This document shows positions 3,596-60,190 of a stretch of 64,000 nucleotides of DNA, one piece after another. Both the position numbers and the translations under genes were made by a program. Under the pieces are notes generated by a model. That model made no database searches and was not told where the DNA came from. It saw only the letters and a list, made by a program, of their open reading frames with translations. Source of the DNA: an uncultured Acidobacteriota bacterium (GTDB taxonomy: Bacteria > Acidobacteriota > Vicinamibacteria > Vicinamibacterales > UBA2999); the NCBI GenBank assembly GCA_963709325.1, contig CAVPVV010000003.1:2561147-2625146 (forward strand). The letters run 5' to 3'. The number at the start of each line of letters is the position of its first letter. Position 1 is the first letter of the stretch.

Positions 3596-3839
3596 CCATT
3601 GCCGATTGAGGATTGACGATTGACGATCTACTGACGATTAGGTGATCGGCGGATTGTGCGATTCGATTGACGATTGCGATATTGATCCAAATCGCCCATT
3701 GATCCAATGGACGATTCTGTCAATCGCCATTGAGGCAATGCGTCATTGAGCCAATGCGCCTATCACCAATTGAATGGCGCAATCCTCAAATCGTGAATCG
3801 TCAATGAATCGTCAATCGCCAATCCTCATTCGTCATTGG
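3596..3839. repeat. Imperfect ~240-bp palindrome built from heptamer-periodic CGATTGN (left arm) / NCAATCG (right arm) units; family copy 1
   Basis: Left-arm gaggattgacgattgacgat is nearly the reverse complement of right-arm atcgtcaatcgccaatcctc. The termini (CCAATGACGAATGAGGATTGGCGATTGACG...) are about 80% identical, by eye, to those of the element at 38827-39191. It lies between the convergent stops of mmsA and the DUF3037 gene, and supplies the last codons (..SNDE*) of the latter. Confidence 0.8.
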
Positions 3840-4236
3840 ACGCAGCGCGTCCGCGCCGCACCACACGTTCCATCAAGTGCTCCAGGCAGGCGGCAGGATC
3901 GGTTGTGCGCCCGGTGTGCACCTCGGAGGGCTGGATGATGGTGCTGCGCGGGGCGACGAGCCAGCGGAACCGGCCGCGCAAGGGAAGGGCGCCGATTGGG
4001 CCGGCCTCCGGCCCACCCTTGCAGACCACGGGAATCACGGCCAGGTTGCTGCGGACCGCATCCATGTCCACCGCGGGATCGATGGCGCGGATCAGCGCCT
4101 CGTCCACCTCGATGCGAGCGTCGAGGAAATCGCTGTCGGCGCAGGACAGGATGACGCCGACGTTGATCCGTTCGCCGCGATCGACTCGAGGCACGACCCG
4201 CACGATCGCGTAGTCGTAGGTGTATTCAGCGGACAC
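3826..4236 (-). CDS. DUF3037 domain protein
   Basis: 136-aa ORF. The N-terminus YDYAIVRVVPRVDRGERINVGVILSC matches my recollection of the DUF3037 signature. It overlaps the upstream HipA-like gene by 11 nt. Confidence 0.65.
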   Translation of the reverse strand: MSAEYTYDYAIVRVVPRVDRGERINVGVILSCADSDFLDARIEVDEALIRAIDPAVDMDAVRSNLAVIPVVCKGGPEAGPIGALPLRGRFRWLVAPRSTIIQPSEVHTGRTTDPAACLEHLMERVVRRGRAASNDE

Positions 4237-11140: not shown

Positions 11141-11235
11141 GTGAGAAGTGAGCGGTGGAAATGAGAAGCAAGCCCGAAGCTGGAATTACCGCCTGTTACT
11201 TAGCTTCTCACCTCTCACTTCTCGCTTCTTACTTC
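11141..11235. repeat. GTGAGAA-family purine/pyrimidine-asymmetric hairpin repeat (copy 1 of 3)
   Basis: Left arm gtgagaagtgagcggtggaaatgagaagcaagc pairs with right arm gcttctcacctctcacttctcgcttcttacttc. The right arm encodes the last codons of the anti-sigma gene (..SEVRSEK*). Confidence 0.75.
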
Positions 11236-11955
11236 GGAGACGGTGAACTTGTATTCCAGCGACGCTGACCCGGGCGCGCCGGAGGTTCCGACGGACAAGG
11301 TGTAGCGGCCGGCAGAGTCCAGCGCTGATGCGGGAATCAGCAGCAGCAGCGGCGTGCCGGGGGGAGGGGCCGCAGCGGTTCCGGACGCCACCGACACGCC
11401 GTCGGCGGCGCGGAGATCATACGTCAGGCTGGCGCCGGCGGCGACGGCACCGAGATCGACGGCCAGGGCGAGGACGCCGGCGGCTGGCCGCGTCAGCGTC
11501 GGCTCCGTCCCGCGCGAGGCCCCTCGCAGCGTGACCGGCGACAACACGGTCGGACCGATGATCTGCTCGCGAAGAGCGGGAACCACCCACAGCGCCTGGT
11601 AGCCGGCGACGAGGGTGAGCATCGCCGCGGCGGCCCATGGCAGCGCCGAACGCCACACCTGGGGCGTGGCACGTGGGACCTGGGGCTTGAGGCTTGGGGC
11701 CTGGGGCCTGGAGAGGTCCTGGGGTTTCGGGGTCTTGAGGTCTTGGGGGCGTGACGTCCTGGGGGCTTGGACTCCCGACTGCGGCAGAAGTCCCGCCTTG
11801 ACACCTTCCTGCATGAGGGCACCGGTCCTCACGTCCTCGGCGCAAATCGGGCAGGCGAAGAGATGTTCCTCGAACGCGAAGCGCTCGAGCTCCGGCATGT
11901 CGTCGAGCAGATAGCGCTCGGCGGCGTGCTTCTCGACGGCCTGCTCGTGTGTCAC
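11215..11955 (-). CDS. Anti-sigma factor, zf-HC2 type, single-pass membrane protein
   Basis: 246 aa. It has the HxxxCxxC motif (HLFACPICAEDV), a Pro-rich linker, one TM segment (WAAAAMLTLVAGYQALWVV) and a ~120-aa extracytoplasmic domain. Its start overlaps the sigma gene stop by 4 nt. Confidence 0.8.
   Translation of the reverse strand: MTHEQAVEKHAAERYLLDDMPELERFAFEEHLFACPICAEDVRTGALMQEGVKAGLLPQSGVQAPRTSRPQDLKTPKPQDLSRPQAPSLKPQVPRATPQVWRSALPWAAAAMLTLVAGYQALWVVPALREQIIGPTVLSPVTLRGASRGTEPTLTRPAAGVLALAVDLGAVAAGASLTYDLRAADGVSVASGTAAAPPPGTPLLLLIPASALDSAGRYTLSVGTSGAPGSASLEYKFTVSEVRSEK
11659..11714. repeat. Tandem heptamer array (CTGGGGC-like x8, phase-preserving) embedded in the anti-sigma CDS
   Basis: Plus strand reads CTGGGGC GTGGCAC GTGGGAC CTGGGGC TTGAGGC TTGGGGC CTGGGGC CTGGAGA. 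It is translated on the minus strand as RPQAPSLKPQVPRATPQ. Confidence 0.7.
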
Positions 11956-14944: not shown

Positions 14945-16101
14945 ATGGCGTTCGAGACCACCCGTCGGGACATGTTGAAGACCAGCCTTGCCGGCGGCGC
15001 GGCCTGCTGGCCGTGCCGGAGTGGGCCCTGCCCACGCTGGCCCAGGGCGAAACGGTGGTGCCGTTTGCCGACTGGCCGGACAAGTTCGATCCGAACCCGG
15101 CGCCCGACCGCCGGCTGTTCGACAGCCGCACTATCAGCGGCCCGATGACGCCGAAAGACCAGTTCTTCACCACCCAGCACTACGGGCATCCAGTGGTCGA
15201 CCCGGCGACCTATCGGCTGAAGATCTCGGGGCTGGTCAACTCGTCGATGTCGCTCTCGCTCGACGAGGTCCGCAAGATGGGCAATGCCGAGATGATTCTC
15301 GGCTTCGAGTGCTCGGGCAACCGCCGCCCGCTGCAGGGCCTGATCGGCAACGGCAAGTGGACCGGCGTGCCGCTGAAGACCGTGCTCGACAAGGCCGGCC
15401 TCAAGCCGAACGCGCGCGAGATCGTCTTTTTCGGCGCCGACCGGGGCCAGGAGGAAGTCGAGTTCCGGGCCCAGAAGTTCAACGTCGAGCAGCAGTACGG
15501 CCGCAGCATGCCGCGCGACAAGGCGCTCACCACCGAGGCCTTCCTCGCCTACGCGCTCAACGGAGAGCCGCTCACCCGCCACCAGGGCTCGCCGCTCCGC
15601 CTCATCGTCCCCGGCTGGTACGGCGCGCCGAACGTCAAGTGGCTGTCGGAGATCCACGCCCAGGAGGATCAGTACCTCGGCAAGTTCCAGGCCCGCTGGT
15701 ACCGCACGCTGAAGGGCGAGATGATCGACGGCGAGATGAAGTGGGTGGAATCGGCCATCACCCACCTGCAGCTCAAGTCGTTCGTCGCCCGGGTGACGAA
15801 GGCCGGCAATCAGTACAAGGTGCTGGCGGTGGCGCTCAACGACGGCACACCGCTCAAGACCGTCGAGCTGAAGGTCGACGACGGCCCGTGGCAGGCGATG
15901 ACGGCGGACCCATCGACCAACGCGAAGTACGGCTGGAAGTTCTACAACTACACGTGGAACGGCACCGCCGGTGAGCACACGCTGGTCTCGCGGGCCACCG
16001 ACGCCAACGGCCAGGTCCAGCCAACTGAGAAGGATCTCGAGAACAAGAAGACGTTCCTCGAGGACAACTCGCAACAGCCACGCAAGCTGACGCTCGCCTG
16101 A
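14945..16101 (+). CDS. Sulfite-oxidase-family molybdopterin oxidoreductase (SorA/YedY-like) with Tat signal; apparent 1-nt frameshift near 14993-15003
   Basis: AAGGAG lies 8 nt before the ATG at 14945. The Tat signal MAFETTRRDMLKTSLAGGAA is in one frame. The catalytic part (ORF 15013..16101; Mo-ligand Cys context GFECSGNRR, plus dimerisation domain) is in another frame. The junction would read ...GGAA(G)LLAVPEWALP. Confidence 0.8.
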
Positions 16102-16209
16102 AGTGAGAGGTCAGAAGTGAGAGGTGAGAGGCACGGACAGTGCTCTCTGGCCTCTCACTTCTTTCTTCCTGCTTCGCTTCTAACTTCTCACCTCTCATTT
16201 TCACTTCGG
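16101..16209. repeat. GTGAGAA-family hairpin repeat (copy 2 of 3) filling the gap between convergent stops
   Basis: Left arm aagtgagaggtcagaagtgagaggtgagagg pairs with right arm cctctcacttc...cttctcacctctcattttcacttc. It could act as a bidirectional terminator. Confidence 0.75.
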
Positions 16210-22622: not shown

Positions 22623-23564
22623 TCACGCGGCTCCCGTATGCTCGACGACGTCGAGGAAGACGTCCTCGAGCGACGGCATGACCCGACTGACGGATCGCAC
22701 CTCGATGCCGGCGCTGGCCAGAGTGCGCGTCACCGCATCCTCGGGATCCGCGTCGCCGCGCAGCACGGCGTGGACTGCGGTACCAAACAGGCTGGTCTTC
22801 TCCACGACGGGTTGGCGATCGAGCGCTTCCATCGCGGCTACGGGCTGCGCCGCCTGCACCTCGACGATCGGCCGATCGCGGAACACCTGCTTCAATTCCG
22901 TCGTCGTGCCGAGCGCGGCCAGCTTGCCGGCGTGGATGATGGCAATGCGATGGCAGTGTTCGGCCTCGTCGAGATAGTGCGTGGTGACGAGGACGGTCGT
23001 GCCGCCTTCGGACATCTGGTCGATGAGATCCCAGAACTGCCGGCGCGACACCGGGTCTACGCCGCCGGTCGGCTCGTCGAGAAAAACGATCGACGGCTCG
23101 TGGAGAATGGCGCACCCGAGGGCGAGGCGCTGGCGCCACCCGCCGGGCAGGTCGCGGGTCAGCGCGTTCTCGCGGCGCTGCAGTCCAGCCATCTCGAGCA
23201 CGAACCGCCGCCGCTCGGCGAAGCGCTCCCCGTGCAGCCCGTAGATGCCGCCGAAGAATTCGATGTTCTGATCGACCGTGAGCAGCTCGTAGAGCGAGAA
23301 CCGCTGCGACATGTAGCCGATCCGCCGCTTGACGCCCTCCGGATCCTTCGCGACGTCGATACCACCGACCAGCGCGGTGCCGCTCGAGGGCTTGAGGAGC
23401 CCGCACAGCATCCGGATGGTGGTGGACTTGCCGGCGCCATTGGCCCCGAGAAAGCCGAAGATTTCACCGCCCTTGACCGAAAAGGACAGATCGTTCACCG
23501 CGACGAAGTCGCCGAATCGGCGGGTGAGGCCGCGCACGTCGATGGCGCTTGCTGGAGTGGTCAC
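22623..23564 (-). CDS. ABC transporter ATP-binding protein
   Basis: Walker A GANGAGKST, signature LPGGWRQRLAL, Walker B IVFLDEPT. Confidence 0.9.
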   Translation of the reverse strand: MTTPASAIDVRGLTRRFGDFVAVNDLSFSVKGGEIFGFLGANGAGKSTTIRMLCGLLKPSSGTALVGGIDVAKDPEGVKRRIGYMSQRFSLYELLTVDQNIEFFGGIYGLHGERFAERRRFVLEMAGLQRRENALTRDLPGGWRQRLALGCAILHEPSIVFLDEPTGGVDPVSRRQFWDLIDQMSEGGTTVLVTTHYLDEAEHCHRIAIIHAGKLAALGTTTELKQVFRDRPIVEVQAAQPVAAMEALDRQPVVEKTSLFGTAVHAVLRGDADPEDAVTRTLASAGIEVRSVSRVMPSLEDVFLDVVEHTGAA

Positions 23565-24934
23565 GGGCGTCCAAGAGCGCGCTCGAGGCGCGCTTCGGCC
23601 AGCCGGACACCAGCGAGCGCGCGGGCCCGCGCCAGTTCGGCGCCGAGGAGCTGTTCCTGCGCGACGAGGACGTCGGTCGTGGTCGCCACGCCGACGGCAA
23701 GACGCTCGGCCAGCACGCGACGCGCTTCGGCAGACGCGCGCACGCCGGCCTCGGAGGCGCGAACGGCGGCCTGGCTGGATCTGAGATCGAGAAGCCGCTG
23801 CCGGATCTCGGCCGAGACGACGGTGTCGAGCTCTTTCTGTCGCGCGTCGATGGCGCGGGCGGCGGCGGCCGCTTCAGCAACTTCCGCCTTGGTTCGGCCG
23901 CTGTCGAAGATGTTCCACGACATGCTCAGCGACACGTCCCACGACGTCTGCCAGATGTCTTCGCGGGGGAAGATCTTCGGGTTCGGCTTCGCGAAGTCGT
24001 AGCCGCCGCCGAGCGCGAAGTTCGGCCGCCGGCCTTTCGACGCCGCCTCTTCCCGAGCCTGTGCGCCTTCGAAGCGCAAGGCCAGGGCGCGCAGTTCCGG
24101 CCGCTGTTTCAAGGCTTCCGCGACGAGGGGCGCAGTATCTGCCTCGCTCTTTACATTTGTCATGGGGACTGTCCCCTGAGTCGCGGCGGCTCGGGGGACT
24201 GTCCCCCCTGGCGAGTCGAGGCTGTCGGCGAGCTCGATCACGGCGTCGGGCGGGGCGCCGATCAGGCGGCGGAGATCGATCAGGTTCGACTCGAGCAGGT
24301 TGTTCGCTTCGATCAGCTGCAGCTCCTCGCTCGATCGCTGGGCCTCGAAGGTCAGCACGTCGCTTGGCGGAACCAGCCCGACCTCGAGCCGCTGCCGCGC
24401 GTCACCCACCTGCGCGTCAGCGCGGGCGACGCCTTCCTCGAGGACGCGGACCGCTTCGCGTGAGGTGACCACCGCCCAGTAGGCGCGCGTCACCTCGAAA
24501 CGGAGATCGGCTCGCGCGGTATCGAGATCCGCTCCCGCGGCCTCGGCCTCGGCGGAAGCGGCGCGCTCGAGCGCGTCGAGGCGTCCGGCGGTGTAAATCG
24601 GCCACTGCGCGGCAACGCGGGACGTGAAGTTGTCCGGCACGTCCGGGTAGAGGATGTTGAGACGGCCATCCGGGGTTGGAAACCCGAACGGCTCCACGTG
24701 GTTGGTCCGCATGTAACCGGCCATCGCAGATGCGGTCGGGCGCGACGACGACTGCCGGACTTCGACGGTCGCGCGCGCGCCTTCCTGCCGCGCCTCGGCT
24801 TCAGCGAGGCGATGACTGGTCTCAAAGGCGCGGCTGACCGCCTCGCCAACCGTCAGGCGCAGCGGCGGCTCCTGCGCCAGCACCGCCGCAGAACCGGCGA
24901 ACACGAGTGTCACGAACAGGTCGGCGCGGGTCAT
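23561..24934 (-). CDS. TolC-family outer membrane efflux protein
   Basis: 457 aa with a signal peptide and two-repeat OEP architecture. It has 4-nt overlaps with both flanking ATPase genes. Confidence 0.8.
   Translation of the reverse strand: MTRADLFVTLVFAGSAAVLAQEPPLRLTVGEAVSRAFETSHRLAEAEARQEGARATVEVRQSSSRPTASAMAGYMRTNHVEPFGFPTPDGRLNILYPDVPDNFTSRVAAQWPIYTAGRLDALERAASAEAEAAGADLDTARADLRFEVTRAYWAVVTSREAVRVLEEGVARADAQVGDARQRLEVGLVPPSDVLTFEAQRSSEELQLIEANNLLESNLIDLRRLIGAPPDAVIELADSLDSPGGTVPRAAATQGTVPMTNVKSEADTAPLVAEALKQRPELRALALRFEGAQAREEAASKGRRPNFALGGGYDFAKPNPKIFPREDIWQTSWDVSLSMSWNIFDSGRTKAEVAEAAAAARAIDARQKELDTVVSAEIRQRLLDLRSSQAAVRASEAGVRASAEARRVLAERLAVGVATTTDVLVAQEQLLGAELARARALAGVRLAEARLERALGRP
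24164..24208. repeat. Two copies of the palindrome GGGGACTGTCCCC inside the TolC-family CDS (in-frame)
   Basis: Copies at 24164-24176 and 24193-24207. They are translated as PGGTVPRAAATQGTVP. An adjacent unusually AT-rich stretch (acaaatgtaaagag) is also present. Confidence 0.8.
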
Positions 24935-25866
24935 GACGTGGCGCTCCCGGTGATCCTGGCGATGAACACATCCTCGAGCGACGGCGCGATTGGCCGCACC
25001 GCGCTCGGCGAAAGACCGCCGTCGGCCAGGTTGCGATCGAGTGCCGCGCGGGCCGCCTCCGCATCGTCACGCGTGTCCCAGACGTGCAGCCGGTCGCCGA
25101 ACACATACGTCTTCGGGCCGCCGGCGAGTGCGTCCAGCCGCGCGGCGACGTGCCGCGGCTGATCGATCACCACCTCGAACCACGAGCCGGGTAGCGACGC
25201 GCGAAGCCGGCCGGGCGCGTCGAGCGCGAGCACCTCGCCTTCGTGCAGCATCGCGATCCGATGGCACCGCTCAGCTTCGTCGAGATACGGCGTGGACATC
25301 AGGATCGTGATGCCCTGCTCGACGAACTGCGACAGCAGCTTCCAGAACTCGCGGCGTGAGACCGGGTCCACGCCCGTGGTTGGTTCGTCGAGCAGGATGA
25401 TGTCGGGCTCGTGGACGAGCGTGCAGGCGAGCGCCAGCTTCTGCTTCATCCCGCCGGACAGCTTGTCGGCCAGGCGCTGGCGGAACGGCGTGAGCTGCGT
25501 CATGTCGAGCAGCCGATCGCGCCGGGCCGCGTAATCGGTGACACCGTGGATCTCCGCGAAGAACGCGATATTCTCATCGATGCTGAGATCGCCGTAGAGG
25601 CTGAACCGCTGGGAAAGATATCCAACTGATGCGGTCATCGCCCGGTGATCGGCGACCGGGTCGCGACCGAGCATGCGTATCTCTCCCTCGTCGGCGTGCA
25701 GCAGGCCGCAGAGCAGGCGGATGGTGGTGGTCTTGCCGGCGCCGTCGGGGCCGATGAGCCCGAACATCTCGCCGCGGCCGATATCGAACGAGACGCCTTT
25801 CAGCGCCTCGACCGACCCGTAGCGCTTCTTCAGGTTCGAGGCGTGGACGGGAGGAGCGGCGGCCAA
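24931..25866 (-). CDS. ABC transporter ATP-binding protein (second ATPase of the operon)
   Basis: Walker A GPDGAGKTT, signature LSGGMKQKLAL, Walker B IILLDEPT. The listed ORF start (26148) overlaps the HlyD gene. TTG at 25866, with GGAG 7 nt upstream and 4 nt after the HlyD stop, is the likely start. Confidence 0.8.
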   Translation of the reverse strand: MAAAPPVHASNLKKRYGSVEALKGVSFDIGRGEMFGLIGPDGAGKTTTIRLLCGLLHADEGEIRMLGRDPVADHRAMTASVGYLSQRFSLYGDLSIDENIAFFAEIHGVTDYAARRDRLLDMTQLTPFRQRLADKLSGGMKQKLALACTLVHEPDIILLDEPTTGVDPVSRREFWKLLSQFVEQGITILMSTPYLDEAERCHRIAMLHEGEVLALDAPGRLRASLPGSWFEVVIDQPRHVAARLDALAGGPKTYVFGDRLHVWDTRDDAEAARAALDRNLADGGLSPSAVRPIAPSLEDVFIARITGSATS

Positions 25867-27538: not shown

Positions 27539-27567
27539 CTAACCGGTTAGTTAATCTAACAGGTTAG
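27539..27567. promoter_or_regulatory. Tandem operator-like sites CTAACCGGTTAG and CTAACAGGTTAG (17-nt direct repeat CTAACNGGTTAGTTAAT x2)
   Basis: A perfect and a near-perfect 12-nt palindrome lie 13 nt upstream of the tetR start. They sit in the divergent intergenic region shared with the 27608 gene. Confidence 0.55.
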
Positions 27568-27607
27568 TTAATGTCCGCCGGCAGCCGGCTGTCAAGCCCC
27601 GCTTAGA

Positions 27608-36117: not shown

Positions 36118-38862
36118 CTATTTCGGCGACCCGGGCGCGGAGGCGGGGGCCTGTCCGAGGCTCAGGAGATTCGCCATCAACCGGAACGCGCCATCGGTGC
36201 CGGCCGGCAGCTGACGCCACAGGCCCAGGCCGATGTAGATCCAGCGTCCCTTGCCGACTTCCGCTTCGACCAGCGCGCCGCGCTTGGTTCCTTGGTTGTA
36301 CGCGAACGGCTCCTCGAACTCGAGCAGGTCCTTGATGTGCGGATCGCGATCCTGGGCGTCGAAGAAGTAGAGCCCGCGTTCCTGGACCCAGCCGGTCCAG
36401 TCCGCTCGCCCGATCTGGTTTGGTGTGTTGAACACCGGATTCTTCGGTTCGAGCAGACGCACTTCGGCGTTCTCGTCGGTCACACGCTCGCGGCCGACCT
36501 TACCCGGGTAAGGGGCGTACTGGGCATCGTTGAACTCGAACTTGTTGTAGTTGACGATCACGGTGCCGCCGGCGGCCGCGTAGTCGAGCAGCCGCTGGTT
36601 GTAGGCACGCAGATCGAGGCGCCGCTCGTAGGCACGGACGCCGGTCATCACCACGTCGTATTTCGTCAGGTCGCCCCAGGCCAGCTCCTCGGGCCCAATC
36701 ATCGACACCGACACGCCGAGCTGTTCGAGCGCTTCGGGAATCTGATCGCCGACGCCCATCACGTAGCCGATCTTCAGGTTCGGCTTGACCGCGACGTCCA
36801 CGGCCTTCGCCGTCACCTCGGGTGCAACCAGCACGTGCCGCCGCGTGGTGTGCGGGTATTCGACGAGTTGATAGCCCTGCGCGTAGGTGGCACCGCCGTC
36901 GCGAACGACCGCCTTGATCGAGAACTGGCTGCCGCCTGGCTTCGCCGCCGCGGACGCCAGCATCGGCGACGGCGGGGCGTCGACGAAGAAGCGCACGGTC
37001 ATCGCCTCGTCCTCACGCGAGAACGACACCGGCTGGCTCGCCGGCGTCGCGCGCCAGCCCTGCGGCAGCTCGAGAGCGACCTCACCCCTGGCGGCGCCCC
37101 TCGCGTGGTTCAGCACGGTGACGCGCACGTCCTTGCGCGTGCCGCGGGCGTTGGCCGGCGTCGCGCGGCTTGGCACGATCAACGTGTCGGGGCTGGCCGT
37201 CACCGCGAAGGCGGGCACGACGTGCAGCTCGGCCCGCTTCTCGCCGCTGAACAGGTTGCCTTCGGAACGCGCCTGCACCGGGATCGTCACCGGGAATTCC
37301 ACGCCGGCGACCGCGAAGGTGAACGTCGCGGTGAAGGGCGTCGGGCGGAATGGCAACCCGAACGGCACGTCCGGATCGAGGATGAAGCGCGCCGCGTCTT
37401 TCGCGTACTTGAAATGTGCGGCTGTCGGACGCGCGGCGGCAGGGATGACGCCGCCCTTCTCCGTTGGCTGATCGAAGCCGTTCAACGTCCGCGACTTCAC
37501 TTCCACGGGCGTGGTCCCGCGAGCCGCGGCGATCAATTGCACGCCCACCTGCTGGCCCGGCGTCACCACGCCGTCGTCGGCGACTGCGTCGATGCGCATG
37601 TCGGTGGCGGCGACAATCGCGTTGATGAACTGCGATTCCTTCTGCGCCAGGCGGAAGTCGATCTCGAACGTGCCGCTGTCGGACAGCCCCATGCCGGCCA
37701 GGCTCTGACGGAGCGTGCGCACCGCGGTCAGCCCGGCGGCCAGCGGAGCAACGGTGGCGGCGCTGGTTTCGGCGCCGAGTGCGCGCCGTGCGGCTTCGAC
37801 GTGACCGGCAATCGTCGCGAGCGATTGGGTCAGCGCGGCGGGCGGATTGGTGCCAGCGTAGGCAGCCAGCGATCCGAGGCTGACGTCGATACCGTCGAAC
37901 GGCTCTTTCTCGGCGCGATCAACGCCGTCAGGCAGGACGGTGTCGCGCAGCCGGTAGGAGCGCGGACCGGACATGAACCCGCCCTCTCCCGGCAAGGGCA
38001 GGAGCTGCGACATGCCCTGGCACTTGTGCATGCTGCGGGCTTCACCCTGCAGCTCGTTGTAGGTGCGGCCGAGGACGTGGTCGTAATCCGCGCCGCCAGT
38101 GAACATCAGCGGCTTCGACGCACCGGGGCCGCTGAACTGCTGAGGGCCACCGCGTCCGCCGCCCGGACCGAAGCCCGCGGTGTAGTAGAACTTGGTCGCC
38201 TGCCAGGGGCGGAGCCCGTCCTTGATCTGCTCGGGGAACTGATTCGGATCCGCGGCCGCGCGAAACGCTTCGGCGGTGAGCCGCGAGGAGGTCTGGTGAT
38301 GCTGTCCGCCGCCCTCACCGTCGAACACGAAGCCGACGATGACCTGGGGGCGGATCGTGCGGATCATGCGCACGTAGTCGCCGAGGATCTCCTGGTGGCC
38401 CCACTTTTCCAGCGTCTCCTCGACGCTGAACGAAAAGCCGAAATCGACCGCGCGCGTGAAGTACTGCTCGGCGCCATCATAGCGGTGGGCCGCCAGCAGC
38501 TCCTCGGTCCGCAGCACCGCAAGCGCCTCGAAGAGCTCCGGGCCGATCTCGTTCTGTCCGCCCTCTCCGCGGGTCGCCGTCACCAGGGTAGTCCGCATCC
38601 CCTTGCCGTGGCCGTAATAGGCCAGCATGGCGTTGTTCTCATCGTCGGGATGCGCCGTCGTCATCATGAGAGTCCCGACCGTGTCCAGCTTCCGCAGCGC
38701 CAGTTCGACAGCCGGTACTCCGCGCAGCGCCGCCACCGGCTGCAACTGGTGCTGCGCGGTGGGCGCCTCAATCAGCGCCGCGACCCCCAGAGTGGCTATA
38801 GCCAGGCGCTGCGCGAGGCGCCGCGTCCAATGACGATTGGTGATTGCCGATTGACGATTCAT
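36118..38862 (-). CDS. Large PIG-L (LmbE-like) family deacetylase with C-terminal ThuA/GATase1-like domain
   Basis: Contains the AHPDDENNAML motif and a signal-like RRLAQRLAIATLGVAALIEAPTAQ. The listed start at 39018 runs through the repeat element; ATG 38862 (MNRQSAITNRHW) is the more likely start. Confidence 0.75.
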   Translation of the reverse strand: MNRQSAITNRHWTRRLAQRLAIATLGVAALIEAPTAQHQLQPVAALRGVPAVELALRKLDTVGTLMMTTAHPDDENNAMLAYYGHGKGMRTTLVTATRGEGGQNEIGPELFEALAVLRTEELLAAHRYDGAEQYFTRAVDFGFSFSVEETLEKWGHQEILGDYVRMIRTIRPQVIVGFVFDGEGGGQHHQTSSRLTAEAFRAAADPNQFPEQIKDGLRPWQATKFYYTAGFGPGGGRGGPQQFSGPGASKPLMFTGGADYDHVLGRTYNELQGEARSMHKCQGMSQLLPLPGEGGFMSGPRSYRLRDTVLPDGVDRAEKEPFDGIDVSLGSLAAYAGTNPPAALTQSLATIAGHVEAARRALGAETSAATVAPLAAGLTAVRTLRQSLAGMGLSDSGTFEIDFRLAQKESQFINAIVAATDMRIDAVADDGVVTPGQQVGVQLIAAARGTTPVEVKSRTLNGFDQPTEKGGVIPAAARPTAAHFKYAKDAARFILDPDVPFGLPFRPTPFTATFTFAVAGVEFPVTIPVQARSEGNLFSGEKRAELHVVPAFAVTASPDTLIVPSRATPANARGTRKDVRVTVLNHARGAARGEVALELPQGWRATPASQPVSFSREDEAMTVRFFVDAPPSPMLASAAAKPGGSQFSIKAVVRDGGATYAQGYQLVEYPHTTRRHVLVAPEVTAKAVDVAVKPNLKIGYVMGVGDQIPEALEQLGVSVSMIGPEELAWGDLTKYDVVMTGVRAYERRLDLRAYNQRLLDYAAAGGTVIVNYNKFEFNDAQYAPYPGKVGRERVTDENAEVRLLEPKNPVFNTPNQIGRADWTGWVQERGLYFFDAQDRDPHIKDLLEFEEPFAYNQGTKRGALVEAEVGKGRWIYIGLGLWRQLPAGTDGAFRLMANLLSLGQAPASAPGSPK

Positions 38863-39191
38863 TGATGATTCGCGATTGGGAAATTGCGGCATTCGATTGG
38901 TGATTGAGGGAGTGGCGATTGGATCATTGACGAATGCTGATTGGTGATTGGGATTGGACGACAAGCCGCGGCCGAGACCGAGATCGCGCTTGGCCCGGCG
39001 AGAGAACGGTGCGAACACGGGGCATCAACTGAGGCGCTGGTTCGGCCAAATTGCCAATCAAATCGCCAATCGCCAATCGTCATTCGCCAAATCGCCAGTG
39101 CCCCAGTGCAGCAATCGACAATCGAATGCCGCAATCCCAAATTGCCAAGCATCAATCGATCGTCAATCGTCAATCGGCCATTCGTCAATGG
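38827..39191. repeat. CGATTGN/NCAATCG heptamer-periodic inverted-repeat element, family copy 2 (arms ~130-145 bp, ~88-bp unique core)
   Basis: Left arm 38827-38957 and right arm 39046-39191 are mutually complementary (for example gattgggaaattgcggcattcgattg versus caatcgaatgccgcaatcccaaattgcc). The termini are homologous to those of copy 1. Confidence 0.8.
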
Positions 39192-47492: not shown

Positions 47493-49922
47493 ATGCGGAC
47501 GCTCGGCCGAATTCTGTTGGCCCTTCTCGTCCTCATGGCTGGTGTGATCGTCGCCGGCGGCTGTTACACGCGCGCCCAACTGCGCGGCAGCCTGCCGGTG
47601 CTGGACGGCAACATCACGATGAACGGCTTGTCGGCGAAGGTCACGGTGACCCGCGATGCGCTCGGGGTCCCGTCGATCGCCGGCGCGACGCACGCTGACG
47701 TCGCACGGGCGCTGGGCTTCCTTCACGCCCAGGATCGCTTCTTCCAGATGGACCTGCAGCGCCGTCAACCGGCCGGCGAGCTGGCCGCGCTCGTCGGAGC
47801 GCGCGCGGTCCCGGTCGACGCGGAGGTGCGCGTCCACCGCTTTCGACACGTCGCCCAGGAGGCCCTGGCCAAGGCCAGTCCCGAATGGAAGGCGTTGCTC
47901 GAGGCGTACGCTGCCGGCGTGAACGCAGGCCTGCACTCCTTGTCCGCGCCGCCGTTCGAATACCTCCTGCTCCAGGCGACGCCCGAGCCGTGGAAGCCCG
48001 AGGATTCGATCCTCACCGTGCTGGCAATGTTCTGGACGCTGCAGGGACGCCAGGCGGCGTTCGAGGAAACCAACCAGCAACTGCGCGACGCGCTTCCCGA
48101 GCCGCTCTTCCGGTTCCTGGCCGTCGTCGGGTCGGACTGGGACGCGCCTTCAGTCGGTCACCTCGCATCGCGGCCGGCCGTCCCCGGACCGGAGATTGCG
48201 GATCTGCGCGGCAACTCACCGGCAATCAGAGCGGTCGCACACAAGGATGCAAGTGTCGCTGCGGCCGGGACGTTCGACGAGCAGGCCGCGCTGATCGGCT
48301 CGAACAACTGGGCCGTTGACGGAGCGCACAGCGCCACCGGCCGCGCGATTGTCGCCAACGACATGCACCTGTCGATCGGCGTGCCGAACATCTGGTATCG
48401 CGCGTCAATGGCCTGGCCGGATCCGGCGGAGCCACTCGCCACGCTGCGCCTCGGCGGGGTCACGCTTCCAGGGCTCCCGGTCACCGTGGTCGGCAGCAAT
48501 GGACATGTCGCCTGGGGCTTCACCAACACCGGCGGCGACTGGAGCGATCTGGTACGCATCGAGCCGGACCCACGCGATCCGTCGCGCTATCTCACGCCCA
48601 CCGGACCGATGTTGTTCGACCTTGGCGACGAGCAGATTGCGGTCAAGGGCGGGGCTCCGACCACGATCGCGGTGCGCGGCACCATCTGGGGGCCGATCGT
48701 CTGGAAGGACGCCGAGGGGCGAGAGTACGCGCAGCGATGGATCGCGCACGATCTGGCGCTCCTCGCCACCGATCTCGATCGGCCGGAGCGGACGCGAACC
48801 GTGGACGAGATGGTGGTTGCCTTGGTGGGCCTGGGACTGCCGAATCAAAACGTGACCGCGGGGGACTTGAGCGGACGAATTGCCTGGACGGTTGGAGGCG
48901 CGATTCCGAAGCGTCGCGGCTTCGACGGATTCACGCCCGAGTCGTGGGCCGACGGATCGCGCGGGTGGGACGGCTTCCTCGAAGCCGGCGACTACCCACG
49001 GCTCAGCGATCCGAAGGCGGGCCGGCTCTGGACGGCAAATGCGCCGGTGGTGGACGGTCCAGGACTCGCGGCGATTGGAGATGGCGGCTATGCGGACGGC
49101 ATCCGCGCGCGCATCATCCGCGATCGGCTGTTGGAGATTCCGAAAGCGACGCCCGAGCAGATGCTAGGCGTACAGCTCGACAACACCGCGCTCTTTCTCG
49201 AACGGTGGCGCCGTGTCGCGCTCGACGTGCTGGCCGTGGGTGCGGCTGCCTCGCCAGCGGATCGCGCGGCGGCGCGGCGTGAGTTCAAGCGGCTCGTCGA
49301 GACCACGTGGACCGGTCACGCGTCACCTGAATCCGAAGCCTATCGCCTCGTGCGTACTTTCCGCCTGCAGGTCGTGAAACGCGTCCTCACGTTCGTGACC
49401 GCAGCGGCCGCGGCAAAGGACTCGTCGTTCGACTACACGCGCGCGATGCGCACCGAGGGCCCGGTCTGGACGCTCGTGTCCGAGCGCCCGATGCACCTGC
49501 TGGATCCGCAGTTCAGGAACTGGGACGAGCTGCTGCTGGCGGCGGTAGACGCGGCGATCGACGAGCTCACCGAAGGAGGAAAGCCCCTCGCGGGCCGTAC
49601 CTGGGGCGAGTTCAACCGCGCGCTGATCCAGCATCCGCTGTCCAGCGCCGTTCCACAGCTCGGGCGCTGGCTGAACATGCCGCAGGACCCGTTGCCCGGC
49701 GACGCCTACACGCCGCGCGCGCACGCGCCGCGCACCGGTCCGTCCGAGCGCATGGCCGTCTCACCTGGCGACGAAGCGCACGGCATCCTGCACATGCCGA
49801 CCGGCCAGAGCGGCCACCCGCTATCGCCGTACTTCGGCGCCATGCACAAGGCCTGGGTCGACGGGTCGCCAGTGCCGTTCCTCCCCGGCCCTGCTGTTCA
49901 TACGCTGACCTTCGTTCCGTAG
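47493..49922 (+). CDS. Penicillin acylase family Ntn-hydrolase (possible acyl-homoserine-lactone acylase)
   Basis: 809 aa with a signal anchor. The N-terminal nucleophile context is ALIGSNNWAVDGAHSATGRAIVANDMHL. Confidence 0.85.
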   Translation: MRTLGRILLALLVLMAGVIVAGGCYTRAQLRGSLPVLDGNITMNGLSAKVTVTRDALGVPSIAGATHADVARALGFLHAQDRFFQMDLQRRQPAGELAALVGARAVPVDAEVRVHRFRHVAQEALAKASPEWKALLEAYAAGVNAGLHSLSAPPFEYLLLQATPEPWKPEDSILTVLAMFWTLQGRQAAFEETNQQLRDALPEPLFRFLAVVGSDWDAPSVGHLASRPAVPGPEIADLRGNSPAIRAVAHKDASVAAAGTFDEQAALIGSNNWAVDGAHSATGRAIVANDMHLSIGVPNIWYRASMAWPDPAEPLATLRLGGVTLPGLPVTVVGSNGHVAWGFTNTGGDWSDLVRIEPDPRDPSRYLTPTGPMLFDLGDEQIAVKGGAPTTIAVRGTIWGPIVWKDAEGREYAQRWIAHDLALLATDLDRPERTRTVDEMVVALVGLGLPNQNVTAGDLSGRIAWTVGGAIPKRRGFDGFTPESWADGSRGWDGFLEAGDYPRLSDPKAGRLWTANAPVVDGPGLAAIGDGGYADGIRARIIRDRLLEIPKATPEQMLGVQLDNTALFLERWRRVALDVLAVGAAASPADRAAARREFKRLVETTWTGHASPESEAYRLVRTFRLQVVKRVLTFVTAAAAAKDSSFDYTRAMRTEGPVWTLVSERPMHLLDPQFRNWDELLLAAVDAAIDELTEGGKPLAGRTWGEFNRALIQHPLSSAVPQLGRWLNMPQDPLPGDAYTPRAHAPRTGPSERMAVSPGDEAHGILHMPTGQSGHPLSPYFGAMHKAWVDGSPVPFLPGPAVHTLTFVP

Positions 49923-50019
49923 GGGGGACAGTCCCCCTATTCGATCCGACTCAATGGCCTTATACGACACGACTCAGGGGACTGTCCCCCTATGCGACCC
50001 AACTAGGGGGACTGTCCCC
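49923..50019. repeat. Three copies of the palindrome GGGGACWGTCCCC in a 97-nt intergenic array
   Basis: Copies at 49923-49937, 49977-49990 and 50006-50019, with related spacers (CTATTCGATCCGACTCA / CTATGCGACCCAACTA). The array starts immediately after the acylase stop. Confidence 0.85.
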
Positions 50020-50034
50020 AGTTGCGGGTCGCCG

Positions 50035-50538
50035 TCACCAGCGGATGCGGAGCAAGGGGCGGACAGGAGAGGGTGGTGGACTCGTGCCGCCGGGTGGCGC
50101 CGGGCGGACGCGATAGAGAGGCTGACGCGATGTGTTTGCGCGATCGAGCAAGTAACCGACCGTGCCGTACGAGATGACGGCGCTCGCTACGAGGGTTCCC
50201 TGCGACTCGGGCAGCTCCGAGGCAACGAGCAGGCCCATGATCAGGCCGATGGCCGCCCCCTTCAGCGTCCCGTCCAGCGTCGAGTCTCGCACGCGATCGA
50301 CTGTAAACACGGCGTCGCGCTGCATGACGATGGACTGCGCGCCGGTGCTGAACGTCACTTCAAGGTCGTCGGCGTCCACCAGGTTCAGGCGGCGCTCTTG
50401 TCCATTCGCATCGGTGACGTAGACCTCCTGCCCCAGCGCTTTCTGCAGACGGGCAAAATCCGCCAGCCGTGCCGGCGTGAGCGTTGGATCGGGAACCGAC
50501 ATGATCCCGAATATGAGCGGCATGATCAGGTATCCCAT
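50035..50538 (-). CDS. Hypothetical small membrane protein
   Basis: From ORF 50035..50598. ATG 50538 gives MGYLIMPLIFGIMSV (a TM segment), and a second hydrophobic segment GAAIGLIMGLLVA is present. No domain recognised. Confidence 0.45.
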   Translation of the reverse strand: MGYLIMPLIFGIMSVPDPTLTPARLADFARLQKALGQEVYVTDANGQERRLNLVDADDLEVTFSTGAQSIVMQRDAVFTVDRVRDSTLDGTLKGAAIGLIMGLLVASELPESQGTLVASAVISYGTVGYLLDRANTSRQPLYRVRPAPPGGTSPPPSPVRPLLRIRW

Positions 50539-50634: not shown

Positions 50635-52086
50635 TCACGCCGCTCGCGACGCGATCGCGACCAGAAGCGGGCGCAGCCGTTCGTGGCCGTGAAGCGGCAG
50701 GAACATCGGATCCGCGGCCAGGCTCCACGCGGTCGGCCCAGCGGGAGCGTCCCTCATCAGCGTATCCAGCGCGTCGCACGCTTCCGCCGGCCGGTCGGTC
50801 CACGCCAGCAGCGCCGCGCGGATGAGCGTGGCGTCCGACGTCTTCGGGCCGGACGACATCTCACCCAGGGCGCGTTCGACGGCCGCTGCGCGAGAACCAG
50901 GGGACAGTCCCCTTACCCTTTTCGCAAGGGGACTGTCCCCACTTGCCAGATGCAGGCCGAGGGCGCCGCGGGCCGCGCCGGGATTCAGCGACTCTGCCAG
51001 CTCGAACGCGGTCGCAGCTTCCTGACGCTGGCCGAGCCGGACATGATGGAAGCCGGCCGAGGTCGCCGCCAGCCACTGGAACTCGCGCGCGAACAGCCCT
51101 GACGGGCTCTGCTCCGTCTCGGCTGCAAACGCGGCGACCGCCTCGTCCATTCGATCGGTGGCGGTCGCCACTAAACCTCGCATCCAGTGCAGGCCCGCCA
51201 CCGGCAGCACTGCTGTCCCGGGCTGCGCGTCCTGGATGCGCGCGCCGGCGTCGGCTTCGGCGCCAGCCCGATCCCACGCGCCGCGGGCGACGAACACCAT
51301 CGCCGACAGCAGGTGGGCCGCGGCGCACGACGGCGACAAGGCCAGCGCACGATCGGCCGCCCGCAGACGGTCCTCGCCCCAGCACGCCAGCGCCAGTCGA
51401 AATTGGTGGCGCCAGCTGTCCGGCTCCAGCGCCACCGCCCGCCGCGCCGCTGCCTGCGCATCGTCACGCCGGCCAGCCAGCGCCTGCGCGTGTGCCATCA
51501 CCGCCCAAGCCTCGCCGAGGCGCGGGTCGATCTCGGCAGCTCGCCGCGCCGCGGCGAGCGCCGCCTGCACGAGCGCCATGTCCGGACGGTTCGTCAATCG
51601 CGTGGCTTCGAACCCGACAACGCACGCGTTGGCGACGCCGGCGTGAGCCGGCGCGTAGTCGGGCATTGCCGTCGCGGCCGCCTCCATCGCCGCGCGGGCC
51701 TCAACGAGGCGGGTTGGATCGAGCGACTCGAGGGCAAGGCGGCCCTCCACCCAGAGCCGGAACGGATCACCGCTCGCGGCCTCAGTGGCCGACACCCCGA
51801 TGAACCGGTAGCCGCGCCTCGCCAGCGTCTGGATCACCCGCGGCTGGTCGGCGGGATCGCCGAGCGCCTTCCGGATGTCGGCGATCGCCCGCGCCAGCGT
51901 GTTCTCGGTGACGTGCACGTCGGGCCAGAAGCGATCGAGCAGCTCCTCTTTCGTAGCGATCGCGCCGTTGCGCTCGACCAGGTAAACGAGGATCTCGACC
52001 AGCCGCGGCGACAGTTCGATCGGGTCGCCGTCGCGGGACAGCGTCCACGTCCGGATGTCAACGGCAAACGGCCCGAAGCGAACCAT
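50635..52086 (-). CDS. OmpR/PhoB-type winged-helix DNA-binding protein fused to a TPR/BTAD-like domain
   Basis: N-terminus is FGPFAVDIRTWTLSRDGDPIELSPRLVEILVYLVERNGAIATKEELLDRFWPD...TLARRGYRF. The rest is alpha-helical repeats. Confidence 0.8.
   Translation of the reverse strand: MVRFGPFAVDIRTWTLSRDGDPIELSPRLVEILVYLVERNGAIATKEELLDRFWPDVHVTENTLARAIADIRKALGDPADQPRVIQTLARRGYRFIGVSATEAASGDPFRLWVEGRLALESLDPTRLVEARAAMEAAATAMPDYAPAHAGVANACVVGFEATRLTNRPDMALVQAALAAARRAAEIDPRLGEAWAVMAHAQALAGRRDDAQAAARRAVALEPDSWRHQFRLALACWGEDRLRAADRALALSPSCAAAHLLSAMVFVARGAWDRAGAEADAGARIQDAQPGTAVLPVAGLHWMRGLVATATDRMDEAVAAFAAETEQSPSGLFAREFQWLAATSAGFHHVRLGQRQEAATAFELAESLNPGAARGALGLHLASGDSPLAKRVRGLSPGSRAAAVERALGEMSSGPKTSDATLIRAALLAWTDRPAEACDALDTLMRDAPAGPTAWSLAADPMFLPLHGHERLRPLLVAIASRAA
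50900..50940. repeat. Two copies of GGGGACWGTCCCC inside the wHTH-TPR regulator CDS (in-frame)
   Basis: Copies at 50900-50912 and 50928-50940. They are translated as SGDSPLAKRVRGLSPG, a different reading frame through the palindrome than in the TolC gene. Confidence 0.8.
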
Positions 52087-52094
52087 GGCCTAAC

Positions 52095-52189
52095 GGAAGT
52101 GAGAAGTGAGAAGTGAGAAGTGAGAAGCAAGAGGCGCGAGGAAATCGGTGGGTCTGCTTCTCACCTTTCACCTCTCCTTTCTCATCTCG
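52095..52189. repeat. GTGAGAA-family hairpin repeat (copy 3 of 3) with a perfect (GTGAGAA)x4 tract
   Basis: Left arm ggaagtgagaagtgagaagtgagaagtgagaagcaagagg pairs with right arm ctgcttctcacctttcacctctcctttctcatctc. Confidence 0.8.
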
Positions 52190-57390: not shown

Positions 57391-58858
57391 TCGGGAGTCG
57401 GGAGTCGGGAACCGGGAGTCGGAAGAGCGCTTGTCTGGTGCTCGTCCTGGGCATCACGCTGATCGCGGGTCCGGCGCCCGCGCAGCAGCCCGATCGATCG
57501 AAGCCGCCTGCGATCGGCCCGGCGCCGGCGCTGAGGCTGCCGTCAGTCGAGAAAGGGACGCTCTCGAACGGCGTTCCTGTGTGGGTCATCGAGCAGCATC
57601 GAGTGCCGCTGGCACAGGTCAACGTGATCATGCGCGGTGGCAGCAGCCTCGACCGAAGCGGGCGTTACGGCATGGCCAGTCTCGTCGCGGCGATGCTCGA
57701 TGAAGGCGCCGGAGCGCGCTCCGCTCTCGATCTTGCTGACGCGGTGGATTTGCTGGGCGCGGATCTCTCGACCAGCAGCACCTTCGACTACTAGCGCCGT
57801 GCGGCTCTCGGTGCCGGTCAAGAACCTGGCGCCCGCGCTGGGGCTCCTCGCCGACGTCGTACTTCGCCCCACCTTCCCCGCAAACGAGCTTGAGCGCTTG
57901 AAGAAAGAGCGGCTCTCTGCGCTCGTCCAGGCGCGGGACAACCCGGCCCAGATCATCGGATACGCGTTTCCGCGTGTGGTGTTCGGGCCGACCTATCGCT
58001 ATGGCACGCCGGCCTCCGGGCTGGGTCCGGTGATCGAGGCGATCACCGCCGACGAGGTCCGCGCGTTCTACAAGGAGCACTACACCTCCGGCAACGCGAC
58101 GATCGTCGTCACCGGTGACGTGACACTGGCGAGCGTGAAGGCGGAACTCGACAAGGCGTTCACCGGCTGGCCGTCGAGCGGCGCGCGCGGGACGACCGCA
58201 GCGCTGCCGGTTGCGCCCCAGTTGACCAAGCGCGAGATCGTGCTGGTGGACAAGCCCGGGAGCGGCACAGTCGCAGATCCGCATCGGGTGGGTCGGCGTG
58301 CCCCGCTCGACGGCCGATTACGCCACGCTGCAGGTGTTGAACTCGCTGCTTGGCGGGTCGTTCGGATCACGGCTCAACCAGAACCTGCGCGAGGAACACG
58401 GCTACACCTACGGTGCGGCGTCGATGTTCGACATGCGGTCGTCCGCCGGCCCGTTCCTTGCCACTGCCGGCGTGCAGACCGACAAGACGGCCCCGGCGCT
58501 GCACGAGTTCTTCGTCGAGCTCGAGGGCATCCAGAAGCCGATTCCGGCAGCTGAGGTCGAGAAGGCGAAGAACTACGTCGCACTCGGTTTCCCGGCGGAG
58601 TTCGAGACCACGCGCGCGCTCGCACAGAAGCTCGAGGAGCTGATCGTCTACAACCTGCCCGACGACACTTACCAGTCCTTCTTCGGCGCGGTCCAAAAGG
58701 TCACCCTCGCCGAGGTCCAGAAGGCCGCCGCCCGCTACATCCAGGCCGACAAGCTGGCCATCGTCGTCGTCGGTGATTTGAAGGCGATTGAGCCGGGCAT
58801 CAAGGCACTCAACCTCGGTCCGATTCGCGTGGTACCGATCGAGGAGTTCTTCAAATAG
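57387..58858 (+). CDS. M16 family peptidase, non-catalytic partner subunit; two frameshifts (~57792 and ~58265)
   Basis: Three collinear ORF pieces (57387..57794, 57637..58554 middle part, 58298..58858) join as ...STSSTFDY|SAVRLSVPVKNL... and ...VLVDKPG..|QSQIRIGWVGVPRSTADYATLQVLNS.... There is no HxxEH motif. The start overlaps the upstream stop (ATGA). Confidence 0.75.
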
Positions 58859-60111: not shown

Positions 60112-60127
60112 CTCTGGCGGCTTTCTA

Positions 60128-60190
60128 CCTTCTGCCTTCTGCCTTCTGCCTTCTGCCTTTTGCCTTTGCCTGCCTTTGGCCTTGACTTTG
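60128..60190. repeat. (CCTTCTG)x4 tandem heptamer followed by degenerate CCTTTTG/CCTTTGG units
   Basis: Read directly from the sequence. It is pyrimidine-rich on the plus strand, has no complementary arm nearby, and lies between the flavoprotein stop and the metalloprotease gene. Confidence 0.8.

Follow-up and report, generated by a model that had tools for sequence, protein, structure and literature searches.

In-frame copies of a perfect 13-nucleotide palindrome in a TolC-family gene and a regulator gene of a Vicinamibacterales acidobacterium: a probable REP/REPIN-type repeat family

The window analysed here is a 64-kb stretch of DNA with a guanine-plus-cytosine (GC) content of 68%, from an uncultured acidobacterium of the order Vicinamibacterales; plain coordinates refer to the window, and L- and P-prefixed names to the loci and proteins of relatives. 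It contains the perfect 13-nucleotide (nt) palindrome GGGGACWGTCCCC in seven exact copies against 0.08 expected from dinucleotide-preserving shuffles (0 of 100 shuffles reach seven); near-copies with one or two mismatches are absent from the window, and matches with three mismatches stand at chance level. The copies fall at three loci within the 64 kb, namely a TolC-family outer-membrane efflux gene, an array between two convergent genes and a regulator gene, each holding two or three palindromes 28-53 nt apart. Outside TolC they start at 49924, 49977, 50007, 50900 and 50928. The first-pass annotation had reported the two TolC copies and had proposed that one DNA element occurs in coding and non-coding contexts, a proposal that holds; the regulator locus (50635..52086) and the copies at 49924, 50007, 50900 and 50928 were absent from it.

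The TolC-family gene (23561..24934, minus strand) is an intact open reading frame (ORF) of 457 amino acids (aa), whose product matches the OEP family (PF02321) in two stretches with an E value of 2.7e-58 and has its closest relatives among TolC-family proteins from Vicinamibacterales (Acidobacteriota) metagenome-assembled genomes (MAGs). Syntenic loci show the operon order TetR, HlyD-like adaptor, ABC ATPase, TolC, ABC ATPase and two ABC-2 permeases. Alignment with orthologues delimits an in-frame insert, SPGGTVPRAAATQGTVPMTNVKSE (24143..24214, minus strand; residues 241-264), which occupies the linker joining the two TolC repeats, just where an in-frame addition had been proposed. Read in the sense strand, a first palindrome (24194..24206), which extends to the 15-nt palindrome GGGGGACTGTCCCCC (24193-24207, the form in which it was originally listed), is followed by the 17-nt spacer TGAGTCGCGGCGGCTCG (24177..24193), the two forming a 30-nt unit, or ten codons; then come a second palindrome (24164..24176) and the AT-rich module ATGACAAATGTAAAGAGCGAGGCAGATACT (24134..24163, minus strand), translated as MTNVKSEADT. 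Both palindromes read GTVP. The atypically AT-rich stretch described beside them is real, for GC content is 27% at 24149-24163 and 42% at 24133-24163, as against 68% in the window; in the search elsewhere the TolC linker was the sole location of this module, which is therefore no general part of the repeat.

In an AlphaFold2 model of the TolC protein, with the orthologue alignment as input (mean predicted local distance difference test score, pLDDT, 83), the score drops below 50, the signal-peptide region apart, only at residues 241-262 (SPGGTVPRAAATQGTVPMTNVK), between a short strand at 233-235 and the helix beginning at 263, the first of the second repeat. The insert is thus predicted to form a disordered loop. 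A profile search aligns the protein with the solved TolC and ST50 structures, in which I take the inter-repeat segment to be the equatorial region; a phmmer search of the protein against the PDB gave no match. In the same neighbourhood, a 17-nt direct repeat, CTAACAGGTTAGTTAAT, with two copies at 27539-27572, lies in what synteny would make the region upstream of the TetR gene heading the TolC/ABC operon, and is a candidate operator.

The intergenic array (49923..50034) separates a penicillin amidase gene (plus strand, ending at 49922) from a conserved 167-aa gene of unassigned family (minus strand, ending at 50035). Its first palindrome (49924..49936) begins two bases past the penicillin amidase stop codon, in the arrangement GTAG-G-palindrome; the next (49977..49989) has CGACTCA before it, and the last (50007..50019) lies 30 nt beyond the preceding one. 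The 64 kb contain just two instances of the word CTGAGTCG, one on either strand, and both abut a palindrome (at 24176 and 49970), so that the presence of the word in reverse complement at an intergenic copy, as first described, holds good. A repeat finder likewise returned a 30-nt unit, made of the 13-nt palindrome and a 17-nt spacer, common to the TolC and intergenic loci, and it is this unit together with the CTGAGTCG flank that links the coding and intergenic copies. An array occupies the same intergenic place in L208; in L082, from a close relative (regulators 92% identical), the interior is wholly different, being replaced or decayed, while the flanks are identical.

The second host gene (50635..52086, minus strand) encodes a 483-aa regulator with a winged helix-turn-helix domain (Trans_reg_C) and tetratricopeptide repeats (TPR), and is an intact ORF with domain matches and full-length orthologues. 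Within it, the alignment, filled and empty sites at the DNA level and the fold together define a 42-nt (14-codon) in-frame insertion, GDSPLAKRVRGLSP (50899..50940, minus strand), consisting of a palindrome at 50928-50940 read GDSP and another at 50900-50912 read GLSP, with a 15-nt spacer between them (the reading across both is ..SGDSPLAKRVRGLSPGS..), and folding as a 17-bp hairpin of -37.3 kcal/mol (z -6.2). In an alignment of 22 regulator orthologues, the segment is confined to the window protein, P0121 (92% identity, three palindromes), P0122 (78%) and P0123 (75%), and is missing from P0124 (74%) and from all 17 more distant proteins. At the DNA level the empty site (L209) reads GCG GGT GGC directly followed by CTG GAT, the insertion point lying between the two; the filled sites carry perfect palindromes, and the third unit at the P0121 locus adds 27 nt. 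The regulator copies are thereby shown to be a true insertion, which entered in frame as a block between helices of the regulator protein.

The palindrome is free of stop codons in every frame on both strands and encodes GDSP or GDCP, GTVP, and GQSP or GLSP; all three phases are in use in the window, GTVP twice in TolC, GDSP and GLSP in the regulator. Predicted folds at the window loci range from -37 to -66 kcal/mol (z -3.4 to -6.2), that of the TolC sense strand being -43.3 kcal/mol (z -3.4), and the copies pair into a long hairpin in the manner of REPINs, the hairpin-forming doublets of repetitive extragenic palindromes (REPs); L208 offers a stem of 17 bp with a 7-nt loop. The intergenic copies are preceded by 4-nt tags, GTAG followed by G (49919), CTAG, and twice ATAG on the other strand; the coding copies are without any tag of the GTAG type, and in L006 and L010 GTAGTCG comes before the palindrome. 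Rfam, run over the whole window at gathering thresholds, matched no family, and a full-text literature search with 11- and 13-mers of the palindrome found solely eukaryotic primer or NF-kB-type matches, nothing bacterial. A role as terminator was rejected, a T-tail following none of the window copies.

That the TolC insert is old is shown by its orthologues. Those about 85% identical are without exactly ten residues (PGGTVPRAAA in the alignment), that is, without the one 30-nt unit to which the first palindrome belongs. The palindrome at 24164-24176 is exact in L211, L001, L207 and L206 (DNA read, 74-87% identity) and in the partial gene L013. Linkers with two copies and a homologous spacer occur in P0001 and L013 (residues 1-267) at 93-95% identity, L211 at 88%, L206 at 74% and L212 at 75%, partly decayed in the upstream copy of L206 and in both copies of L212. 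This range of 74-95% identity makes the two-copy state old, and on the alignments the one-copy genes probably arose by loss of one unit. Decayed versions are found in L204, L081, L002, L004 and L005; in more distant orthologues the element is absent and the linkers are short and unrelated, the linker being hypervariable in length and sequence across the family. The element is thus common to a Vicinamibacterales clade of TolC genes down to about 65% identity, and the expectation, put to an orthologue alignment, that the insertion would be specific to this genome has to be given up in favour of an ancient, clade-wide one. It had also been said that the same peptide in genomes lacking the palindrome would count against insertion. 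L081, L002 and L004, whose palindromes are decayed, do keep a related peptide; this fits a single old insertion inherited vertically, and an insertional origin is not refuted by it.

In a neighbour-joining tree computed with the linker masked, the element-bearing genes form one group of two sister clades (nine loci read in the wrong frame were disregarded, the clades used in the argument being unaffected). Palindrome and AT-rich module, taken as one composite, match the window solely in reverse complement in the second clade (L006, L009, L037, L205), at 24-29 of 28-35 positions in L006, L009 and L037 and at 20 of 26 in L205, giving the peptide FTNVTGTVPN where the window form has GTVPMTNVK; an in-place inversion, a second insertion or a differential loss of halves of an ancestral symmetric doublet may each account for it. 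The simplest account is an old insertion, vertically inherited, with whole 30-nt units gained or lost. Two side observations belong here. In L018 and L019 (58-59% identity), the corresponding place in the linker reads GTVSD and GTVPD, though in a non-palindromic spelling (codons GGA ACG GTG); this may be what is left of the element, or chance may account for it. The MAG SMAG_U15452 holds both a two-copy TolC fragment (L013 10729-10803, its contig breaking off within the repeat) and, on a different contig, an entire TolC gene with one copy (L001 2104), which suggests a strain mixture or paralogues, plus an assembly break at the repeat.

Conservation of the TolC element extends to its nucleotides. 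Between the window and five orthologues, codon identity at conserved residues is 52-62% gene-wide, and in the second palindrome and AT module it is 12/12, 8/8, 6/8, 7/9 and 10/10. Third positions are identical at 5/5 sites of the second palindrome in five lineages, and at 6-9 of 10 sites of the AT module in six of seven lineages, against a background of 0.51-0.62; GC content at third positions (GC3) is about 50% in the element and 83-90% in the gene. The regulator insert in L210 and L208 shows nucleotide conservation like that of the TolC element. High conservation on the one hand and fast intergenic turnover on the other imply that copies are either replaced or kept perfect; their perfection could be kept by selection on a DNA or RNA hairpin, by short-patch homogenisation or by self-correction of the palindrome. 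The sole sigma-70-like match in 23500-25000, ATGACA-18-GATACT at 24163..24134, falls inside the AT module; an internal promoter is nevertheless improbable there, for the hexamers are not conserved (L211, L207, L081) and would lie antisense in the inverted clade.

The same core is found well beyond this lineage. When metagenome contigs were scanned for pairs of palindromes separated by 10-40 nt, at least 120 contigs emerged; those listed range from 27 to 75% GC and have many differing flanks and spacers, about one third of the palindromes being A/T-rich on both sides. With flanks and spacers so diverse, the 13-mer appears as the core of many repeat families. Two contigs tie this broader family to the same order, as L130 and L086, syntenic with or similar to Vicinamibacterales loci, carry A/T-flanked doublets. 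In at least five metagenome contigs, palindrome units lie 6-320 nt from IS200-like Y1 transposase genes, recognised as Y1_Tnp (PF01797) in L201 and L115 and by tblastn in L163, L119 and L203; the L201 gene has repeats on both sides, the so-called REPtron layout, and L163 shares the 3' flank CCTATTC with the window. Y1 genes occur in 5 of the 120 palindrome-selected contigs among those listed and in 0 of 92 other loci, which by Fisher's test gives p = 0.07, so that the Y1 argument rests on adjacency to the repeats and not on the count. In L115 (412-1038, minus strand) and L119 (about 1982), genes resembling those of REP-associated tyrosine transposases (RAYTs) have the palindrome inside their own ORF, read in L115 as ..WYPDGDSPQPRP.., and arrays just upstream.

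Other genes have been entered in frame too. Among the listed contigs with GC of at least 0.6, together with the window, 6 of 90 clusters passed a strict coding test. In-frame elements were located inside the Aminotran_1_2 domain of a CobD/CobQ-type protein (L159 5272-5334), inside the B3_4 domain of PheT (L184 2339-2401), between the two domains of a GlcD-like FAD oxidase (L193 2971-3033), between the GTPase and TGS domains of a GTPase (L153 5458-5527) and in a 3569-codon ORF (L194 11203-11238). Three of them give one peptide, RGQSPF...NGDCPL, the middle being in L184 the reverse-complement reading. A peptide search with an artificial tandem of a metagenome insert found small hypothetical ORFs only and was uninformative.

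The TolC linker has also received a second, unrelated palindromic family of about 75 nt in other Vicinamibacterales (CCCGCCTTCGCGGCCGnAGGCCGCTACGGCG...CGCCGTAGCTCG...GCGAGCGAAGGCGG, also written CCCGCCTTCGCGGCC...GCTACGGCG...CGCCGTAGC...GCGAGCGAAGGCGG), full-length and in frame in L015 (895-1000) and L021 (10664-10770), partial in L011, L023 and L049, and intergenic in L023 (7951-8045) and L049 (7934-8028). A 12-mer scan for linker repeats in the orthologue flanks yielded mostly chance matches, and only the CCGCCTTCGC family held on inspection. In still other lineages the linker contains short tandem repeats, likewise in frame (such as GAQGAQ, GSPGSPG and NPSNPSNP). The TolC linker is, then, a repeated landing place for palindromic elements.

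Taken together, these data make it probable that the palindromes form a REP/REPIN-type repeat family whose copies colonise permissive protein loops. Its unit would be the 13-nt palindrome plus a 14-17-nt spacer, with singlets, doublets and triplets folding into long hairpins and most copies placed, as REPs are, just downstream of genes. An in-gene copy would survive if its length is a multiple of three, if it creates no stop codon and if the site is a permissive loop; the stop-free frames and the small peptides rich in Gly, Pro, Ser and Thr explain why copies are tolerated in the TolC linker and between the regulator helices. A Y1 transposase acting on single-stranded hairpins may have spread the family in this lineage, replication slippage would change the number of units, and copies would since have been largely frozen, being kept perfect by constraint on DNA or RNA or by homogenisation. 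The family resembles REPs and REPINs in being a short, dispersed palindromic repeat with frequent doublets folding into a long hairpin, in its positions just past stop codons and between convergent genes, in the repeats of the same core that flank Y1_Tnp genes as REPtrons in at least five contigs from other bacteria, and in intragenic dimers that add some 14-25 aa in frame, for which Opitutus terrae, Thauera and Rickettsia conorii offer parallels. In L006, L009 and L010, moreover, copies sit at gene 3' ends.

Several observations weigh against this interpretation. The core measures 13 nt, perfect and with a single-base centre, where classical REPs measure 20-40 nt, and its spacers vary from 4 to 40 nt. 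Only one window copy bears a GTAG tag, whose presence is inconsistent; the exact palindrome is scarce in most relatives, with 8 copies in 1.4 Mb of TolC loci (L001-L080); and of the three window loci just one lies between convergent genes, the other two being, unusually for REPs, inside genes. No RAYT was seen in the loci read from this lineage, the window and the other 92 loci (about 1.5 Mb, nearly all round TolC or regulator orthologues) being without a Y1 transposase gene, and comparison of filled and empty sites showed no target-site duplication at the borders of the regulator insert. Some of the metagenome families, with their unrelated flanks, may share the core by chance. Palindromes at orthologous positions across deep divergence argue against recent mobility. 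Finally, all window palindromes are perfect, and synonymous conservation in and beside the TolC palindrome is far above background, neither of which a purely selfish, decaying insert would predict.

Three rivals were considered. The TolC palindrome and AT module might be a selected cis-acting DNA or RNA element whose origin would be secondary; it could serve as an operator, as a site for a nucleoid protein, as a promoter inside the gene driving the ABC genes downstream, or as an mRNA hairpin tuning decay or translation of the operon. The raised codon and third-position identities, the low GC3, the exactness of all seven copies and the sigma-70-like match lying in the AT module all speak for such an element, as does the dyad symmetry of both motifs, whose composite occurs in either orientation as a double-stranded binding site would allow. 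Yet the promoter-like hexamers are missing from L211 at 88% identity (ATGCCA...GCAACT), their spacing is disrupted by 9-nt insertions in L207 and L081, and a promoter would face antisense in the inverted clade; because the match is not conserved, the promoter role in particular is given a low probability. L212 has lost the AT module and L081, L002 and L004 keep it in decayed form, the palindrome also occupies unrelated genes and intergenic arrays with quick interior turnover, and neither an Rfam match nor a terminator-like tail accompanies it. As a whole, cis-acting selection is an unlikely explanation.

Selection on the protein accounts for less. On that explanation GTVP...MTNVKSE would be a functional linker motif of a TolC subfamily and the palindromic spelling incidental, as could be argued from GTVP or GT[VI]P at the same linker position in many orthologues and from the different codons used for it in L018 and L019; but the identical 13-mer is read in two other frames of another gene and stands in intergenic DNA, the region, predicted to be disordered, varies greatly in length and sequence across the family, and the conservation at synonymous sites would be left unexplained, so that I regard it as hardly tenable. 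The hairpins might instead have been generated and amplified locally, by slippage or template switching, with similar cores arising independently and without any mobile element. Whole-unit copy changes (one, two or three) at one site and the tandem arrays with periods of 17-38 nt among the metagenome contigs listed are in keeping with such a process, and an imperfect palindrome can become perfect through template switching (quasi-palindrome mutagenesis). Against it, an identical 13-mer, with CTGAGTCG and CTAT as common flanks, is very unlikely to have arisen independently at three loci in 64 kb, comparison with the empty site shows the regulator insert to be a block, and the core is physically linked to Y1 genes in at least five contigs; a purely local origin is accordingly very improbable.

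The REP/REPIN-type interpretation also places the element among systems already described. REPs tagged with GTAG or CGTC have been reported inside genes of several species, more than half of them as dimers or groups and contributing 20-30 aa (Di Nocera et al. 2013, PMC3733652), so that the phenomenon was already on record outside Rickettsia. The classical in-frame palindromic elements are the Rickettsia palindromic elements (RPEs; Ogata et al. 2000, 2002, as given in the review PMC10969869). Intragenic REPs and RPEs being known, the present element is filed under the REP/REPIN kind. With RPEs it shares palindromic repeat DNA in frame in functional genes, a peptide that fits the fold, coding as well as non-coding copies, and insertion at a permissive site of intact conserved genes, here TolC and the regulator. 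The analogy with RPE colonisation drawn by the first-pass annotation is strengthened by the empty regulator site of orthologues, by in-frame copies in four other housekeeping genes and by the second family in the TolC linker. Membership of an RPE family, on the other hand, was rejected on size and taxon, by description and not by sequence comparison with an RPE consensus: an RPE measures about 100-150 bp, is confined to Rickettsia and belongs to a family with one conserved peptide of about 30-50 aa, whereas here a unit of 27-30 nt uses all three frames and the host is a free-living soil acidobacterium.

Two other comparisons are less apt. Transposable elements of the miniature inverted-repeat type (MITEs), such as Correia/NEMIS, ERIC and Nezha, are likewise small non-autonomous repeats, sometimes intragenic and capable of in-frame fusions, and the copies in L048 lie as 30-nt terminal inverted repeats round about 120 nt; the units here are far below the typical 70-300 bp, and no link to a DDE transposase exists. 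An identity as MITE was rejected, the regulator insert having no target-site duplication and no partner resembling an insertion sequence being identified. HIP1, the highly iterated octamer of cyanobacteria, is likewise a perfect palindrome of very small size that occurs both within and outside coding DNA; it is not known to arrive as an inserted block, and an origin of that kind, without extra bases, was set aside here, where the palindrome comes with a spacer and makes the sequence 27, 30 or 42 nt longer than in orthologues.

Some further arrangements of the palindrome in relatives deserve mention. The MITE-like layout of L048 (15416-15580) is formed by two palindromes within terminal repeats of sequence AAGGGGACTGTCCCCATTTTATTGTTAACCAG. 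In L086 (7237-8045) two doublets bracket a 209-codon ORF, presumably DJ-1/PfpI-like by the look of its sequence, and in L130 (1484-1547) a doublet enlarges the intergenic region relative to L050. The palindrome provides the last codons, GDSPR and the stop, of an orthologous gene in L006 (5390) and L009 (2584), and lies just past the stop in L010 (5421); by synteny this is probably a PIG-L-domain gene, and in L006 AGTAGTCGGG is found three times beside the 3'-end palindrome.

The window also contains intergenic tandem arrays with a 7-nt period and differing heptamers, at 3598-3835, 11204-11235, 11658-11711, 16100-16131, 38894-39097, 52096-52127, 57391-57422 and 60123-60171, the heptamers being ATTGACG, GAAGTGA/CTTCTCA, CCTGGGG, TCGGGAG and TTCTGCC. 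The stretches 3750-3851 and 38815-38916 are mutually inverted (102 nt, 81%). A GAAGTGA run lies directly upstream of the regulator start and in L209/P0124 is translated as a spurious N-terminal extension, FTFHFSL.

It is possible, and I put it forward tentatively, that GGGGACWGTCCCC is the recognition hairpin of a widespread clade of RAYT-like Y1 transposases which colonises proteins in frame across soil and sediment bacteria, its copy in tolC having been exapted. If this were so, in-frame colonisation of the Rickettsia type would be general and not exceptional, with hosts including TolC, the regulator, PheT, an aminotransferase, a GlcD-like oxidase, a GTPase and a transposase, and exaptation in tolC would explain both the perfection of the palindrome and the A/T-ending codons at a place where synonymous sites are otherwise near saturation.

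Short of that, in-frame colonisation of genes by palindromic repeats is documented here in Acidobacteriota (Vicinamibacterales), an abundant but barely studied soil group, in which two repeat families with no relation to each other have made use of one and the same permissive TolC linker. Such repeats have practical consequences, since they break metagenome assemblies, as in L013, which ends inside the repeat, and yield spurious small ORFs in annotation. For the proteins themselves, the inserts create lineage-specific loops and variation in length in outer-membrane and regulatory proteins, and the long persistence of an intragenic repeat with nucleotide conservation bears on whether such elements are merely tolerated or occasionally put to use.

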